Program-made: the position numbers and the translations under genes
Notes under the pieces: model-generated
Told to the model about the DNA's origin: nothing
Databases searched by the model: none
What the model saw: the letters and a program-made list of their open reading frames with translations, nothing else
Shown here: positions 4,148 through 28,480 of the stretch, one piece after another
Position numbering within the stretch: position 1 is the first letter of the stretch
Layout: each line of letters begins with the position of its first letter
Source of the DNA: Gemmatimonadota bacterium
Lineage (GTDB): Bacteria > Gemmatimonadota > Gemmatimonadetes > Palauibacterales > Palauibacteraceae
Direction: 5' to 3'
NCBI GenBank assembly: GCA_029288095.1
Contig: JARFPW010000325.1
Location: forward strand, 1-28,737
Length of the DNA: 28,737 nt

Positions 4148-4278
4148 CCCCGGGTGCTTTGCGGTGCTCCGGTTCGGGTCGCATGTTGTGGTTGCGAGGC
4201 CTCGATTGAGCGCTCGCTGTGAGCACATCCGGCGCGCTGACGCCGTCAACCCTGCATCCTTACCCGGACCACGGTGAC

Positions 4279-5343
4279 ATGAATAGTGAGATCCTCGAAC
4301 TTCTAGGCGATGACGCCACGTCGCTCCTGGAGCATCGGTGCGCGGGCATCGCCGCCGACCGTCTGAGCGCCCCTGGACCCGACTTCGTCGATCGGGTGGT
4401 AGCACAGTCGGATCGTAACAACCGCGTTCTGGGCAACCTGCAATGGATGTTCGGCACCGGCAGGCTCGCGGGCACCGGTCATGTGTCGATTCTGCCGGTG
4501 GACCAGGGTATCGAACACGCTGGAGGGGCGAGCTTCGCCAAGAATCCCGACTACTTCGATCCGGCGAACATCGTCGAGCTGGCGCTCGAGGGCGGATGCA
4601 ATGCCGTCGCCTCTACGTTCGGCGTGCTCGGGTCCGTATCCCGCCGGTTTGCGCACCGGATTCCGTTCATCGTAAAGCTCAACCACAACGAGCTGCTGAC
4701 GTACCCCAACAGCTTCGACCAGATCATGTTCGGCACGGTGCAGCAGGCGTATGACATGGGCGCCGCCGCCGTCGGAGCGACGATCTACTTCGGCTCGGAG
4801 GAAAGCGGCCGGCAGATAATCGAGACGGCAGAAGCCTTCGCCTATGCCCATGAGCTGGGGATGGCGACGATCCTGTGGTGCTACCTGCGGAATTCAGTGT
4901 TCAAGAAGGACCAGGACTACCACGCAAGCGCCGACCTGACGGGGCAGGCGAATCACCTGGGTGTGACGATTCAGGCGGACATCATCAAGCAGAAACTGCC
5001 GGAGAACAACGGCGGCTACGTGGCGATGAATGAAGGCGGTGTGAAGTACGGCCGGTTCGACCAGCGGATATATGACGAGCTGACGACCGATCATCCGATC
5101 GACTTGTGCCGCTACCAGGTAGCGAATTGTTACATGGGAAGGGCCGGGCTGATCAACAGCGGAGGCGCCTCGGGTGACAACGACTACGCCGACGCCGTGC
5201 GAACCGCCGTCATCAACAAACGGGCGGGTGGCACGGGTCTGATATCCGGGCGAAAGGCCTTCCAGCGGCCTCGTGCGGACGGGATTCGGCTGCTCAACCT
5301 GATCCAGGACGTGTACCTCGATTCCGACATCGGTTTGGCATGA
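4279..5343 (+). CDS. fbaB: Class I fructose-bisphosphate aldolase (DhnA/FbaB type)
   Basis: [27 protein letters not shown] (Schiff-base Lys), [10 protein letters not shown]; start placed at MNSEILELL. Confidence 0.93.
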
Positions 5344-21029: not shown

Positions 21030-21284
21030 ATGACGACGGATCTGCAACGTGTCCCCTGGGTTGGTCCGAGCACGGAGCGGGCTCTACTCGAAGTCGGCGT
21101 CAACCGGATCGCCGACCTGCGGTCGCAGCAGCCCGACGAGTTGTATGATCGATTGTGTGATGTGCGCGGCGAGCGGATAGATCCCTGCGTGAAGTACGTG
21201 TTCCGGTGCGCGGTCTACTGGGCCACGACCCCGGATCCGGATGCTGATCTCCTGAAGTGGTGGAACTGGAAGGACCGAGCCTGA
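21030..21284 (+). CDS. Small helix-hairpin-helix protein (Cdd1/TfoX-C-like)
   Basis: DLQRVPWVGP HhH-like start, DPCVKYVFRCAV, KWWNWKD; GGGGAG RBS. Confidence 0.7.
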   Translation: MTTDLQRVPWVGPSTERALLEVGVNRIADLRSQQPDELYDRLCDVRGERIDPCVKYVFRCAVYWATTPDPDADLLKWWNWKDRA

Positions 21285-21286
21285 AC

Positions 21287-22051
21287 ATGCGTCGCCCCCT
21301 CGTCGTGGCCAACTGGAAGATGAACATCGGCCGCGCCGACGAGGCGCTTGACCTCGTGCGCCGCCTTCGCCCATCGCTCAGCCGGCTCGACAAAACCGAC
21401 ATTGTCGTCTGCCCGCCGTTCACCGTCCTGGTCCCGTTGGCCGAGGTGCTGGCGTCGTCGCCCATAGCGCTCGGCGCCCAGAACGTGCACGCGGCGGCTG
21501 CGGGAGCCCATACGGGAGAAGTGTCGCCGTCGATGCTCACCGGCCTGTGTGAGTACGCAATCGTCGGCCACTCGGAGCGGCGCGCCGCTGGTGAGACGGA
21601 CTCTGACGTGAACGCCAAGGTCCTGGCCTGCGTCGAGCACTCGCTGAGGCCGATCGTCTGCGTGGGCGAGAACCTGGCTGAACAGGAGGCCGGAGACACC
21701 GATGCGATCGTAGCCGGGCAGGTCGCACGTGCGCTGGAGGGGCTGTCCCCGGAGCAGGTGGAGGTCTGTGTCGTCGCTTACGAGCCAATCTGGGCGATCG
21801 GGAGTGGGCGGGCAGCGACTCCGGCGGCTGCCAACCGCACGATGGGCCTGGCCGTCCGCGGGAGCCTCGCCAACCAGTTCGGCGAGAGCTCGGCACAAGC
21901 CGTCCGGGTCCTGTACGGCGGTAGCGTAACATCTTCCGGGATAAGCGGTTTCATGGCCATGCCCGAGATCGACGGAGCGCTCGTCGGTGGGGCGAGTCTA
22001 ACATCCGAGTTCGCCGACCTGGTACGCCTGGCTGACGATTCGACCATGTGA
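21287..22051 (+). CDS. tpiA: Triosephosphate isomerase
   Basis: ANWKMN, VGHSERR, AYEPIWAIG, LYGGSV, GALVGGASL. Confidence 0.96.
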   Translation: MRRPLVVANWKMNIGRADEALDLVRRLRPSLSRLDKTDIVVCPPFTVLVPLAEVLASSPIALGAQNVHAAAAGAHTGEVSPSMLTGLCEYAIVGHSERRAAGETDSDVNAKVLACVEHSLRPIVCVGENLAEQEAGDTDAIVAGQVARALEGLSPEQVEVCVVAYEPIWAIGSGRAATPAAANRTMGLAVRGSLANQFGESSAQAVRVLYGGSVTSSGISGFMAMPEIDGALVGGASLTSEFADLVRLADDSTM

Positions 22052-22109: not shown

Positions 22110-22382
22110 TCAGGGGCCGATCAGCACGTCGTCTATGACTCCGACGATCACGGCCCGGATGGCCCCAGGGTCAAGATCGAGGACCTGGCGCGCCCCATTG
22201 CCCTCGTCAAGCACGAGAACCGTATCGCCGGGACCCGCCTTCGCCTGATCCACGGCGATGTCGTATTGCTCGGTCGTGTCACCCGCGAGGTCCAGACGTT
22301 CGACGAGCAGGAGCCGGCGACCTTCGAGATGACCAATCCTGATGGTTGCCACGACGGATCCGGTAACTCGGCCGACGTACAT
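22110..22382 (-). CDS. BMC vertex protein (BMC-P, EutN/CcmL family)
   Basis: MYVGRVTGSVVAT, AGPGDTVLV, AVIVGVID. Confidence 0.9.
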   Translation of the reverse strand: MYVGRVTGSVVATIRIGHLEGRRLLLVERLDLAGDTTEQYDIAVDQAKAGPGDTVLVLDEGNGARQVLDLDPGAIRAVIVGVIDDVLIGP

Positions 22383-22384
22383 GG

Positions 22385-22657
22385 TCAGGCGTACCGGTGG
22401 ACGTCGTCGATGATGCCGGTGATCGAGAGATCGACAGGCACGAATACGTCCGGTAGCGCCTGAGCGGCCTCCCGGCTTCCCACTACGAACACCAGCGAGC
22501 CCGGTCCCGCCTGAGCGGTGGCATCGGCGGCGACCTCGGGCTGCCCGCGGTCGGTCAACTGCTTGTCGAGGTGCTGGACCACCAGCAGCTTCACGCCTTC
22601 AAGCCCCGGGTACTTCTGGCTGGCGACCACCGTGCCGATCACCCTGGCGAACTTCAT
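22385..22657 (-). CDS. BMC vertex protein (BMC-P, EutN/CcmL family)
   Basis: MKFARVIGTVVAS, QAGPG, SREAA, ITGIID; GGAGG RBS; ATGA overlap with BMC-T. Confidence 0.9.
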   Translation of the reverse strand: MKFARVIGTVVASQKYPGLEGVKLLVVQHLDKQLTDRGQPEVAADATAQAGPGSLVFVVGSREAAQALPDVFVPVDLSITGIIDDVHRYA

Positions 22658-23244
22658 TTCGCCTCCACGGCTCGTCGGCTGAATGGCGTGGCGGCCGAGA
22701 GATTGTCCCACATCTCGGTGTGGAGTTGGGGAATCACCACGCGCCTTACGAGCAGGTCGGGTCGATCAAGCGCGCCCGTTCCACTCTCGACGGCGATCTC
22801 TACGTCCGCTACCACGCCCGAATAGAACACGATCCCCTTGCCGCCGAGCCCGTCGGCCAGCCGGACCTCGACCAGACGCACCTGCGCGCTCTTGAGGCCC
22901 GCGTCCGCTGCCTGAATCGCCGCTGCGGCCGTCATCGTCTCCACGACGCCGATGGCGTCTCGCGGATCGGGGACACGGCTCCCGGTGATCGCCTCGACGA
23001 CGCCCGGATGGACGTTCGGCAGGAAGACATGGTCGAGAACCGCAGAGCCGCCGACCTCACGCCCCGCGGAAAGCGACTCTTCGACGTCAGCCACCGCGCC
23101 GCCGATGAGCACGAGATAGCGCCCTGGCTGCACGGTACCAGCCCGGATCGTGTCGATCGGCGCCCGCTTGACCATGGCGTCAGCCGCCTGGATACCAGAC
23201 GCGATGCTCGAGAAGTCGACGAGGGCGAGGGCGGGTTCAATCAT
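22654..23244 (-). CDS. Tandem-domain BMC shell protein (BMC-T, PduT-like)
   Basis: Two BMC domains: SIASGIQAADAMVK and AAAAIQAADAGLK; LADGLGGKG. Confidence 0.88.
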   Translation of the reverse strand: MIEPALALVDFSSIASGIQAADAMVKRAPIDTIRAGTVQPGRYLVLIGGAVADVEESLSAGREVGGSAVLDHVFLPNVHPGVVEAITGSRVPDPRDAIGVVETMTAAAAIQAADAGLKSAQVRLVEVRLADGLGGKGIVFYSGVVADVEIAVESGTGALDRPDLLVRRVVIPQLHTEMWDNLSAATPFSRRAVEAK

Positions 23245-23277: not shown

Positions 23278-24744
23278 TCAGACGATCCGGAAGTAGTCCT
23301 TGAGGACACAACGCCGGATGCGGCTGAAGCTGATCGGACTGGTCACGCCCTCTCCGGTCGGGCTCGCGATCGTGAACGAGCAGTGACCCTCGCCGCCATA
23401 CCCGAGACCGTCGAATGACGAACCGTTCTTAACGAAAATGCTGCAGTCCATGACCCGCGCCATGCGGCTCAGGTTGTCCAGGTTCTTGGAGTGCATGACC
23501 GCCGTGTGGCGGAACCCGTGCTCGGCGACCTTCCCTAGATCGATTCCCTCGTTGGCGTCACGTACCCGGACAATGGGATGAATCGGCATCATCTGCTCGG
23601 AGAACACGAGCTGATCATCCTTCTCGACTTCGGCGAGGATGAGGCGGACCTCGTCTCCCGCATCGATACCTATGGCCTTGAGGAGCACGTTGGCATTCTT
23701 GCCGATGAACTCACGGTTCATCACTCCGTGCCGTCCGCGGGGCGGGATTTCGGTAAATATCGAGGCCTTCAGCTGTTCGATCTGTGCCGCGTCGATCTCG
23801 AACGCGCCGTTGGCGCACATCGCCCGCTTGAGGTCATCGGCAATCGACGCGACGGCGAACGTCTCCTTCTCATCGGTGCAGATGATGTTGTTGTCGAACG
23901 AAGCTCCCCGGACGATGTCGCGGCCCGCTTTTTCCAGGTCGGCGGTCTCGTCGACGACCACGGGAGGATTCCCCGGGCCCGCACAGATTGCCCGCTTTCC
24001 GCTCGCCATCGCGGCCTTCACGACGCCGGCGCCACCCGTGACGGTCAGGATGTTGACTCCCTTGTGACCCATGAGAGCCGTAGCGGATTCGATAGTCGGC
24101 TCGGCGATCGCCGTTACGAGATTGGCGGGCCCACCAGCCTCGACGATCGCATCGTTAACGAGTTGAACTGCCATGTTGGAGCTGCTTTTGGCCCCCGGGT
24201 GGGCATTGAACACGATGGCGTTTCCGGCCGAGACCATGCAGATCGTGTTTGAGACCACCGTCGAGATCGGATTCGTACTCGGGATGATGGATCCGATCAA
24301 ACCGTATGGCGCATACTCCACGACGGTCAGCCCCCCGTCGCCCGTCCAGGCCGTCGAGGTCAGGTACTCCGTGCCGGGAGATTTGTCGGCGTTCAGAAGG
24401 ATCTTCTCGATCTTGTCTTCATAGCGGCCCATCCCGCTTTCCTGCCACGCTTCGTATGCCAGCGGCTGGGAATTCTCTCGCATCGCGCGCCGGATATGGG
24501 CAACCATCTTTTCCCTGATCGACAACGGCAGATCCTGGAGCTGACGGAATGCCTTGCGAGCGGCTTCGACCGCGGAGTCCACATCCGGAAACAGATTGTC
24601 CCCGTGGCGTGGTGACGCGGACGGCGCCGGCGGCTTCACGTCGACCACCGGTTCCGGTCTCGGCCCGTGTGCCCCGGCGTCGGGATGATGCAGCTCGGAC
24701 ATCACCCGGTCGATCACCGCCTGGATCTGAGTGTCGTCGATCAT
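23278..24744 (-). CDS. CoA-acylating aldehyde dehydrogenase (EutE/PduP family) with N-terminal encapsulation peptide
   Basis: [28 protein letters not shown] (catalytic Cys), [14 protein letters not shown]. Confidence 0.92.
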
Positions 24745-25043
24745 CCGCTATCTCCCGCCTTGTCGAACGTCACACGCCCGTTGATCTCCACGGTGTCGAC
24801 GATCGCCATGACGACGCCGTCGCACGGACGGTTCTCCGTCACCCTGGTCTGGCGAGCCGAACTTCCCGTGGCGTACAGCACGACCTCACCCAGACCCGCG
24901 CCCACCGCGTCGGCCGCGACGATGCTGGCTCCGGTCTCTTTTCCATCCACGTCGAGCTGCTTCAGGAGAAGAAACTTCAAGCCCTCCAGGGACGGCTCCT
25001 TCTGTGTGGCTACGACCGTCCCGACGACCCTTGCTACGAGCAT
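24741..25043 (-). CDS. BMC vertex protein (BMC-P, EutN/CcmL family)
   Basis: [31 protein letters not shown]; ATGA overlap with AldDH. Confidence 0.93.
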
Positions 25044-25062: not shown

Positions 25063-25380
25063 CTATTTCTTGGCCGTCTTGGTGACTTCTCGGGTGACCG
25101 GCAGTGTCCCCTCGACGTTGGCATGCGGCCGCGGGATGACATGAATGGCCACGAGCTCTCCAACCTTCTCGGCTCCCCGGGCACCTGCGTCCACAGCGGC
25201 CTTGACTGCGGCGACGTCGCCCCGGACCACCGCCGTCACGTATCCGCCACCTGTCTTCTCATACGCCACCAGCTCAACCCGGGCTGCCTTGACCATCGCG
25301 TCTGCCGCCTCGACCATCGCCGCATAGCTCCGGGTCTCGATCATCCCCAGGGCTTCGATCGCGCCATACTCTTCTGCCAT
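25063..25380 (-). CDS. BMC hexamer shell protein (BMC-H)
   Basis: [37 protein letters not shown]; GGAGG RBS. Confidence 0.96.
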
Positions 25381-25472: not shown

Positions 25473-26120
25473 TCATGCCTTCCTCTTGGCCTCCATTTCG
25501 CGTCCCTCGATTCCTTCGATCGCCGCCACGGCCGCCCCGTAGCCAGCCATGATGTCGCGCTCTTCACCGCCCAGATACACGCGGCCGAAACTGCCGAACG
25601 AACGCACTTCGAGGATATTCAGATCAGCGGCCTTCTCGGCCTCGTTCGCTGCGAGGGCGGCGTATCCGGCAGGCTCCACCTCGAGCACGTACAGGGTCTG
25701 CCCGGCCAGCAGCATGTGCCCGTAGCGCATCCGGTTGACCAGCTGAACCTGGTGCGCGTCCACGTTGCGGATGATCTGACTCGAGACCACGCGGGGCTTG
25801 ATGCGCTGCGACTCGTCCACTCCGAGTGCCTGCAGGATGGCCGCGCCGGCCGCTCGAACTTCCGCCTGTACCTCGTGATGCACTTCGAGTAAACCGAACA
25901 ATCGTTCAACGACCTGCATGCCGGGGCGTACGCGCGTCGATTTGAGTGCGATATCCGTAATGCGGTTGATCTCGATGCCTGGTGAGATCTCGACCCAAAG
26001 GGACGTGTCCCCGGGCAGCGGCAGGAATCCCCGGGCTACCGTGCCGAGATAGGCCGCGTGCTGCGGCTGGAGGCTGTCCAGAAATGCGTACGTCCGGAGG
26101 TCAACGAGCTTCTGCGTCAT
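25473..26120 (-). CDS. Permuted tandem BMC shell protein (BMC-T dp, CcmP/CsoS1D-like)
   Basis: [43 protein letters not shown]. Confidence 0.9.
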
Positions 26121-26122
26121 GG

Positions 26123-26983
26123 CTAGACTCCCTGAATGATCTTAACGCTCGCACTCGCGCCGATTCGGCTGGCGCCAGCGGCAATCATCTTCTGCGCATC
26201 GGCAAACGTGCGGATTCCGCCCGAAGCCTTCACTCCCAAACCGGGCCCGACTACACGTCGCATCAGCGCGACGTCTTCCGCTGTCGCCCCACCGGGTCCG
26301 AAGCCGGTAGACGTCTTGACGAAGTCTCCGCCGGAGACCTTCACGAGCTGGCAGGCGGCGACCTTCTCTTCGTCAGTGAGGAGGACGGCTTCGATAATGA
26401 CCTTGAGAATCGCGCCGCCCGCGTGGCATGCTCGGGCGACGGACGCGACGTCACGTTGAACGAGTTCGTAGTCCCTCGACTTGAGGGCTCCGACGTTGAT
26501 CACCATGTCCACCTCGGTGGCTCCGTCGCGAATCGCCTTCTGGGCCTCGAACACCTTGGTTTCGGTGGAGGTGGCGCCCAGTGGGAAGCCCACGACCGTG
26601 CAGACACGCACCTGGGACTCCTTCAGCAGGTCGGCACACAACTTCACGTGCGACGGGTTCACGCACACCGATGCGAAATCGCATTTCTTGGCCTCGTAGC
26701 ACAACTGCGCGACCTGGTCCTGCGTAGCATCCGGCTTGAGCAGCGTATGATCGATCATGTGACTCAAGCTGCCGTCCGTCGGAGCAACGCCGAGCGTGCT
26801 CGCGATGCGGTCGGCGCCGGCCCTGACGACAGGTTGCACCCGATCGGTGTAGTTCTGCGCGGAGAGAGCGGCTCCATTCCCGCCCGCGCCGGGTCCGGGG
26901 ATCTTGCCCTGGCCCACGAGGACCAACACCTCGTGGGTGATCTGCTCGATGATGCTCTCGAGTGCCACCTCGTCGTACGTCAT
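26123..26983 (-). CDS. deoC: Deoxyribose-phosphate aldolase (DERA) with ~75-aa N-terminal extension
   Basis: [41 protein letters not shown]; ATGA overlap with rpiB stop. Confidence 0.95.
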
Positions 26984-27762
26984 TTTCGGAGGTACCTCTG
27001 CTCGATGTCCATGATCTTCTTGACGCGTCTCTCGTGTCGGCCGCTCCCCGCCGCTGTCCCCAGCCAGGTCTTCACGATCTGTCGACCCAACTGTGCCCCG
27101 ATCAGCCCGGCGCCGAGGGTCAAGACGTTCGAGTGATTGTGCTCCCGGCTGTTCACCGCGGTGGCCTCGTCGTAGCACATGGCAGCGCGGACGCCCGGCA
27201 CTTTGTTGGCGGCCATGCACGACCCGATTCCTGCGCCATCCACGAGAATCGCTCGCCAGGCCTGTCCCTGGGCCACGAGCTGCGCCGCTGCAAACGCAAA
27301 GTCGGGATAGTCGACGGACTCATTGCCATGAGTGCCGCAGTCAACGACCTCGTATCCCAACTCTCCCACGTACTCCTTGAGCATCTCCTTCAACTCGTAG
27401 CCGCCATGATCCGCTCCGAGGGCCACGACCTCGCTGGCCGGTCGAGTCGTCCGTGGACGCCCTAACGAAACGTCTGAGCTGATCCCCGGGACGACCCGAC
27501 CTGCGTCCCCCTCCGCTCGTACCAGCGAGATACTCCTCTCGGTCGCGGCCTGCTGTGCCAGCGGCGAGACGAGTCCTCCGGCCGGGACGGTGAAAGACCC
27601 GCCGGGGGAAACACCGACCAGGTCGTCTTCAGTAACGAGCCGACTCCGCGAGGCGGCAGCGACGGTTGGTGCCCCAGGCCCCGCGGTACGCAGGACGACG
27701 CGTCGCACCATGTCGCGGATCTTCTGTTCATCCGAGGCGGACACGCTGATACGGTCGTTCAT
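26980..27762 (-). CDS. rpiB: RpiB-family sugar-phosphate isomerase with ~111-aa N-terminal extension
   Basis: [34 protein letters not shown]; TGATG overlap with TetR stop. Confidence 0.88.
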
Positions 27763-28457
27763 CACCAGGCCCGCCATTCGAACTCGTCTTCCGTCTCTCC
27801 AACCGACTCATCGGCACGGGCCGGCTCACCGACGAGCGAATCTCGGGATTCATCTCGCTCGTAACGGCTTCGAGCCACCAGGAGCTCAAAGGTCGATCGC
27901 AGTTGGGCCACGCAGGCGTCGTAGGGGTCAAGCGACTCGGAGGCGCGTGACTGGACGATGCCACCCTCGGCGACGGCGAGAACGTGCTGGGCGAAGGCAC
28001 CGCGCTCCAGCCCTTCGGGCAACCGCGGGCCGGCAGCCTCCAGCCACTCTTGAACCTGCGCCACCCAGATCGCGAAATACCTCTCGATCAGCACTCGAAC
28101 CCTCGGAATGCCGCTGCCCACTTCGAGGGCCAGGCTTCCCACTGGACTGCCCAGCTTGCACCCGGAAACGAGCAACGTCCTGCGGTAGATGCCGAGCAAT
28201 GAGAACACATGTTCGAGGGGATCTTCCGTAACACTCTCCGCGGCAGCTCGCTCGAGGAACTGGGGACGCAGCATGTCCAGGTGGCGCTGCATGACGGCGA
28301 CCAACAGGTCTTCCTTGCTCGAGAAGAAGTGATACAGGCTTCCGCTCTTAACGCCGGCGACGCGGAGAATCCCGGCGACCCCCGTCGCATGGTAGCCCTG
28401 CTCGGCGAACAACCGTGCAGCGGCCTCCAGTATGCGGTCCTTCGTGTCGGTTGGCAT
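27762..28457 (-). CDS. TetR-family transcriptional regulator
   Basis: KDRILEAAARLFAEQGYHATGV...GSLYHFFSSKEDL; GCKLGS; start at MPTDTK. Confidence 0.92.
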   Translation of the reverse strand: MPTDTKDRILEAAARLFAEQGYHATGVAGILRVAGVKSGSLYHFFSSKEDLLVAVMQRHLDMLRPQFLERAAAESVTEDPLEHVFSLLGIYRRTLLVSGCKLGSPVGSLALEVGSGIPRVRVLIERYFAIWVAQVQEWLEAAGPRLPEGLERGAFAQHVLAVAEGGIVQSRASESLDPYDACVAQLRSTFELLVARSRYERDESRDSLVGEPARADESVGETEDEFEWRAW

Positions 28458-28460
28458 TGT

Positions 28461-28480
28461 TTGATAAACCAATCAATCAA
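28461..28480. promoter_or_regulatory. Candidate TetR operator
   Basis: AT-rich TTGAT-N10-ATCAA inverted repeat overlapping the putative -10 and start site. Confidence 0.5.

Follow-up and report, generated by a model that had tools for sequence, protein, structure and literature searches.

Introduction

The locus studied here places a protein of the RpiB fold, RPI, in a microcompartment operon, with an Asp at the position of the catalytic Cys of RpiB. This raises the question of what RPI does for the compartment: whether it is an isomerase with another catalytic residue, an enzyme for another sugar phosphate, or a binding or scaffold protein. We analyzed a stretch of DNA of 28,737 nucleotides, hereafter called the window, together with related loci and genomes. 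The substitution itself has been in print since 2024, so the present finding correctly rediscovers a known change. Dwyer, Sutter and Kerfeld (2024; PMC11585597) described Cys-to-Asp in all RPIs of sugar-phosphate-utilising (SPU) microcompartments. These authors studied the RPI of Chloroflexi bacterium GWB2_54_36, which belongs to SPU6, and compared SPU RPI with the Glu type of M. tuberculosis and with LacA. They weighed two options, a rare substrate and a role in packaging, and favored the latter (PMC11585597). The role of SPU RPI was termed unexplored in a 2025 preprint (PMC12747264). Our findings bear on this role in a microcompartment type that is among the most widespread.

RPI gene and operon

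RPI is encoded by the first gene of a tightly coupled operon, in the order RPI, DERA, BMC-T(dp), BMC-H, BMC-P, acylating aldehyde dehydrogenase (AldDH), BMC-T(s), BMC-P and BMC-P (Table 1). The PF02502 match covers residues 118–255 of RPI (E 2.4e-50). Two starts are candidates, Met1 (27777) and Met6 (27762). Considering that the stop of the tetR gene overlaps the ATG of Met6, the second in-frame ATG (window 27760–27764), the true start of RPI may be 27762. The TetR gene is kept upstream of RPI in 16 related loci. The motifs of the catalytic Asp159, Lys223 and Lys252 were all found in DERA. The locus holds DERA, AldDH, BMC-H, BMC-T and three BMC-P genes, which is the gene set of the SPU type defined by Sutter 2021 (PMC8217296), and the operon is an SPU microcompartment locus.

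The closest named relatives of RPI come from MAGs of Gemmatimonadota and Anaerolineae. The RPI of GWB2_54_36 is similar in its Cys-to-Asp change, kept His, N-terminal encapsulation peptide (EP) and gene adjoining DERA, and its locus likewise contains AldDH, BMC-H, BMC-T(s), BMC-T(dp) and a BMC-P triplet. However, by the scheme of PMC11585597 the CcmP-like T(dp) found here suits SPU2 or SPU3 and not the SPU6 of GWB2_54_36, which points to one of the former subtypes. A triosephosphate isomerase (TPI) gene converges on the operon, and 17 of 80 related loci have a counterpart of it at the equivalent position. A class I fructose-bisphosphate aldolase gene lies at window 4219–5343, some 16 kb away; its product could use triose phosphates exiting the compartment.

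Table 1. Positions of the genes, and of the regions and residues of RPI, discussed in the text (window coordinates unless a contig is named).
Feature	Position	Strand	Remark
TetR-family regulator	27762..28472	-	directly upstream of RPI
RPI, SPU-type (Asp-type RpiB), 265 aa	26980..27777	-	ORF and PF02502 match
Predicted EP helix, residues 14-32	27682..27738	-	AF2 helix
Folded module of ~43 residues, residues 46-88	27514..27642	-	related to EutQ-N, EutT-N, PduM-C
Asp123-His124	27406..27411	-	binds sugar-OH and phosphate; kept
Active-site loop, residues 177-192	27202..27249	-	alignment to solved RpiBs
Asp180	27238-27240	-	position of catalytic Cys
Ala182	27232-27234	-	position of Thr/Ser proton shuttle
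Ser186	27220-27222	-	position of Met (Cys-type) or Glu base (Mtb-type)
Asn209	27151..27153	-	lines pocket; Leu/Met in Cys-type RpiB, Met92 in LacA
His213-Asn214	27136..27141	-	ring-opening His and adjoining Asn; kept
Gly224	27106..27108	-	replaces third phosphate-binding Arg (Arg113 equivalent)
Arg247-His248..Arg251	27025..27039	-	phosphate-binding; kept
DERA (deoC) with N-terminal extension	26123..26983	-	start overlaps RPI stop
BMC-T(dp), CcmP-like shell protein	25473..26120	-	NF053796, 366 bits, cut-off 340
BMC-H shell hexamer protein (EutM-like)	25063..25380	-	
BMC-P pentamer 1	24741..25043	-	
AldDH, PRK15398 type	23278..24744	-	
BMC-T(s) tandem shell protein	22654..23244	-	
BMC-P pentamer 2	22385..22657	-	
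BMC-P pentamer 3	22110..22382	-	
TPI	21257..22051	+	convergent on BMC operon
Cys-type RpiB	G000:C272:1571-1987 (L001 1462-1923)		between transketolase-like and transaldolase-like genes

Active-site loop and remodelled pocket

The loop region translates exactly to the 16-residue motif quoted in the preliminary description, and the reported replacement of the catalytic Cys is real. Asp180 aligns with the catalytic Cys of solved RpiBs (Cys66 position), and Ala182 occupies the place of the Thr/Ser proton shuttle, so that the shuttle is replaced too. Asp stands at the Cys position in 120 of the 120 nearest homologues and, after clustering at 50% identity, in 133 of the 150 best-scoring cluster representatives. 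Among 80 GTDB loci it was present in 79, with Asn in the remaining one; these loci were collected with a search pattern without the Asp, yet biased towards the Asp-type subfamily. Accordingly, Asp180 is not a sequencing accident. Cys187, in the GSC of the loop, which looks conserved, was considered as a displaced catalytic Cys and rejected, being present in 99% of close homologues and in just 32% of distant ones. Natural variants of the loop were also seen: one SPU RPI has Asn for Asp (L063 10001–10438), and another has a Cys directly after the Asp (L072 10001–10450).

In RpiB, the enediolate chemistry is carried out by Cys and Thr, the ring is opened by His, the phosphate is held by His and Arg, and the residue equivalent to 209 (Met92 of LacA) lines the pocket (PMC3755991, PMC4783025); the Thr acts as O2-to-O1 shuttle (PMC4783025). 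The preliminary description also stated that the remaining phosphate and ring-opening residues are kept. This held for Asp123-His124, Arg211-Glu-His213-Asn214 and Arg247-His248..Arg251, but not for the Arg113 equivalent. We compared 133 Asp-type proteins, with a mean identity of 51% and a median column conservation of 60%, with 48 Cys/Glu-type proteins of similar spread. Position 182 is Ala in 87% of the Asp type (Thr in 1 of 133 proteins) versus Thr/Ser in 100% of the Cys/Glu type, position 186 is Ser in 100% versus Met in 71%, and position 209 is Asn in 90% versus Leu/Met in 86%. The Arg113 equivalent is Arg in 28% of the Asp type versus 90% of the Cys/Glu type. On the other hand, Asp123 (97%), His124 (98%), Tyr157 (96%), His213 (100%), Asn214 (98%) and Arg247/His248/Arg251 (98%) are conserved in the Asp type. 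Judged from these alignments, the isomerisation residues are lost, and the residues for binding and ring opening are intact. Considering that the latter stand at 96–100% at a mean identity of 51%, the pocket appears remodelled rather than decayed. We infer that selection still acts on it, either to keep a ligand or to keep part of the chemistry. The fixed set of pocket residues names targets for mutation and favors a ligand screen.

Comparison with other RpiB types

The AlphaFold model of RPI resembles the Cys-type RpiB 3he8 of C. thermocellum (Foldseek E 2e-15, TM by target 0.88, 49% identity). The fold and the phosphate and ring-opening residues are common to RPI and Cys-type RpiBs (E. coli RpiB/AlsI, 3he8, T. 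cruzi 3k7s), but RPI differs from them in the changes Cys to Asp, Thr to Ala, Met to Ser and Leu/Met to Asn, and in the relaxed Arg113 equivalent; the N-terminal extensions of RPI are missing from the Cys type. Active Cys-type enzymes have Cys with a Thr/Ser shuttle, where RPI has Asp180 and Ala182. The M. tuberculosis-type RpiB also has no Cys. However, its Glu base, which lies six residues beyond the site of the Cys, aligns to Ser186 and not to Asp180, it keeps a Ser shuttle where RPI has Ala182, and RPI scored under the cut-off of TIGR02133, the test for this type.

The preliminary description had named a third catalytic solution among its options. In such a solution, Asp would serve as the base for ordinary isomerisation of ribose-5-phosphate (R5P). 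Asp does occupy the base position, and RPI scores 140.2 on the rpiB equivalog model, barely over its cut-off of 138.65. However, RPI lacks the Cys that serves as C1/C2 base as well as the Thr that serves as O1/O2 shuttle, so that R5P would not be isomerised, and the activity of the studied homologue on R5P was negligible, both alone and in the complex with DERA (PMC11585597). Genomes also have another isomerase for this task. The source genome, which is 85% complete, carries a Cys-type RpiB between tkt and tal; a search for RpiA in this 85% complete genome found none. RpiA is present in 11 of 12 genomes whose sole RpiB is of the Asp type. In the exception, G159 (95% complete), no other RPI was seen, which would suit an R5P isomerase. 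Because both of its congeners carry RpiA, an assembly gap is likelier, and we rejected the Asp-type protein as the sole housekeeping isomerase of G159. Since a separate RpiA or Cys-type RpiB exists in nearly every genome checked, Asp-type RPI is probably not the housekeeping isomerase of the cell, and we consider R5P isomerisation by Asp very improbable.

The housekeeping Cys-type RpiB of the source genome has the loop CGSAVG and Gln at the 209 position, a variant seen in four genomes of the same family. In three BMC-bearing genomes with a second RpiB (G221, G186 and G104), Cys-type RpiBs with Ala for the Thr shuttle were found (L144, L155 and L156), which possibly represent an intermediate state.

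LacA offers another precedent. It has Asp at the base position and often Ser at +6, and it keeps the His-Asn and Arg-His-Arg residues. As a half-enzyme of this kind, RPI would supply His, Asn and Arg in trans to a Cys-bearing partner subunit, and the source genome does have a Cys-type RpiB. However, the own half-site of LacA is dead, its His and Tyr being lost and the site filled by bulky residues, and LacA needs LacB. In RPI both half-sites are conserved, including His124 and Tyr157, no partner is encoded (no lacB is adjacent, and a LacB-like gene occurs in 0 of the 80 loci), and the score is under the LacA cut-offs. The 12 genomes whose sole RpiB is of the Asp type argue against LacA/LacB-style pairing, and the SPU RPI homologue is a homotetramer (PMC11585597). 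A tree from all columns joined LacA with the Asp type (SH-aLRT 96), but when the loop and Asn209 columns were removed this join was gone and the tree was unresolved; shared ancestry with LacA was set aside, and neither monophyly nor an origin is claimed here. We regard a LacA-like half-enzyme as extremely improbable.

Link with microcompartments and possible substrates

The Asp-type loop tracks with microcompartment loci, as the preliminary description had suggested checking. BMC-P genes are present in 20 of 20 genomes of the phylum with a close Asp-type match, in 18 of which the Asp motif was read directly, versus 30 of 301 genomes overall, a tally in which kin are not independent and which includes the unpublished genome G156, a genome that none of the other claims uses. 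DERA is the next gene after RPI in 78 of 80 loci; in the other two the sequence stops within 150 bases. In 71 of 80 loci, shell genes are found no more than 10 kb from RPI; in seven of the nine others, the sequence continues downstream for about 1.1 kb at most. Some Asp-type copies sit apart from shell genes, alone or with DERA, which fits split loci. L124 8001–9596 (fused), L126 164–2054 and L067 10001–11300 carry Asp-type RPI and DERA with no shell gene in the stretch read, and are probably such split loci.

On the other hand, the proposal that RPI would define what the compartment consumes is weak. The signature enzyme of SPU is DERA, which is active on deoxyribose-5-phosphate, whereas SPU5 has no RPI and 11 of 29 SPU4 loci also lack it (PMC11585597). 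The compartment would consume 2-deoxyribose-5-phosphate via DERA, and AldDH would then take the acetaldehyde.

It is possible, though we consider it less than probable, that the Asp/Ala/Ser/Asn set makes the pocket a dedicated active site, for ring opening of deoxyribose-5-phosphate channelled to DERA or for other sugar-phosphate chemistry. If this is true, SPU RPI would be a dual enzyme and cargo–shell adaptor, with an EutQ-like module docking on BMC-H.

On the one hand, RPI may be an isomerase, epimerase or similar enzyme for another sugar phosphate, with Asp180, Ser186 and Asn209 as a re-tuned set, while also binding DERA. Asp180, Ala182, Ser186 and Asn209 changed together and then became fixed, all other binding residues being kept; the RpiB family is broad in specificity, R5P was the sole substrate of the published negative assay (PMC11585597), and TPI or a class II aldolase is added in some loci. 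However, position 182 is without a proton shuttle, SPU5 and part of SPU4 do without RPI, and no pathway link is obvious, a transketolase being needed for one according to the 2024 authors (PMC11585597). We regard such an enzyme as unlikely.

On the other hand, RPI may be a ring-opening, anomerase-like helper, which opens the furanose of 2-deoxyribose-5-phosphate and passes the free aldehyde to bound DERA. Class I aldolases attack the open-chain aldehyde. Because deoxyribose lacks the C2 hydroxyl, no enediolate would be possible, so that Cys and Thr would be dispensable and ring opening would be the sole RpiB step open to deoxyribose-5-phosphate. The retention of His213, His248 and the phosphate residues with loss of the isomerisation residues is as such a helper would have it. 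However, loci without RPI exist, and to our knowledge ordinary DERAs need no helper of this kind. [quoted passage not shown] We consider the helper rather unlikely.

N-terminal extension

An N-terminal EP has been described for SPU RPIs, with the extension called an unstructured linker (PMC11585597). In the AF2 model of RPI, residues 14–32 form a predicted helix followed by a low-confidence or disordered stretch, in keeping with the EP of SPU RPIs. Residues 46–88 are predicted to form a folded module, with a pLDDT of 83–93 in the full model and 93.5 alone. The ring-opening His is residue 213 here and residue 152 in the RPI of GWB2_54_36; the added length holds this module. Our literature search found no paper describing the module in SPU RPIs.

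The module is related to the N-terminal parts of EutQ and EutT and to the C-terminal part of PduM, which it resembles in sequence and predicted fold; the single-sequence scores are weak to modest but concordant. It matched EutT-N of E. coli with hhalign (P 78%, E 1.9e-5) and EutQ-N of E. coli (E 7e-4), and its copies gave weak but repeated matches to the PduM, TIGR02536 and EutT models. An HMM built from the RPI copies alone was run on 16,750 ORFs, where its sole matches were EutQ-N (E 0.0024) and two class II aldolases of SPU. The module fold is shared by Atlas models of EutT-like, flavoprotein, ACT and PDU-like clusters (TM 0.74–0.88), and the Atlas feature search with the module gave matches at or below 0.80, which we take as leads. 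Among solved structures, no clear match was found by sequence or by fold (best Z 4.1).

Homologues carry 0–3 copies, up to three in tandem. Of the 80 loci, 66 carry the module, and it is present in 62 of 133 Asp-type versus 0 of 17 Cys/Glu-type representatives. We searched the 14 RPI loci without it for the module on a separate gene; there was none in 13, and in the other it sits on a class II aldolase. Class II aldolases with an N-terminal module were seen in SPU loci at L052 17491–18315 and L104 11946–12800.

EutQ and PduM tie the cargo or core to the shell, and residues 9–41 of EutQ are its shell-binding part in vivo (bioRxiv 2024.05.17.594633). For the module of RPI, shell binding is a prediction here. 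The module modelled with four BMC-H chains scored 0.44, which is weak, versus 0.01 for the best control, with at least 90% contact agreement between runs and a partner pLDDT of at least 80. In calibration, 58 of 80 solved pairs passed the mark, as did 2 of 110 mismatched pairs; those that passed it with a score of 0.60 or less were just seven of the solved pairs and both mismatches. The module is a candidate for shell docking; it makes a model of assembly concrete, and might serve as a small tag for targeting in engineered compartments.

Proposed role of RPI

We favor, with some reserve, the explanation that RPI is a non-isomerising adaptor between cargo and shell, the pocket of which may have kept the ability to bind a sugar phosphate. 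This RpiB-fold pseudo-isomerase would act as an assembly adaptor of the SPU microcompartment. Its RpiB domain would oligomerise and bind DERA, as the studied homologue does, its N-terminal helix may pack with other cargo, and its EutQ-N-like module may dock the core onto the shell. The RPI tetramer would thereby gather DERA, while helix and module would tie the core to the shell, like CcmM and EutQ. The pocket would probably still bind a sugar phosphate without turnover.

The binding or scaffold option of the preliminary description is thus supported, and is already in print (PMC11585597). The main argument against a pure scaffold is that the pocket is as conserved as in active RpiB and has gained the fixed polar residues Ser186 and Asn209; considering that decay would be expected in a pure scaffold, the conservation suggests a ligand or catalytic role under selection. 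Against the adaptor stand some Asp-type proteins without EP or module, such as the 154-aa P0230 (L127 8001–8465), which is without any extension and lies inside a shell-gene operon. In favor of the adaptor, an archaeal SPU RPI that has no predicted EP was recruited to shells (PMC12747264).

Other arrangements of the N-terminus were also observed. In one genus (L162, L172 and L173, from G159, G302 and G301), a lone Asp-type RPI, with the module at the very N-terminus and no helix before it, is flanked by genes for a metal-transporter-like permease and a malic-enzyme-like protein. RPIs of the Anaerolineales type (P0019, P0030, P0046, P0077 and P0103), of 330–407 aa, carry two or three tandem modules, recalling the repeats of CcmM.
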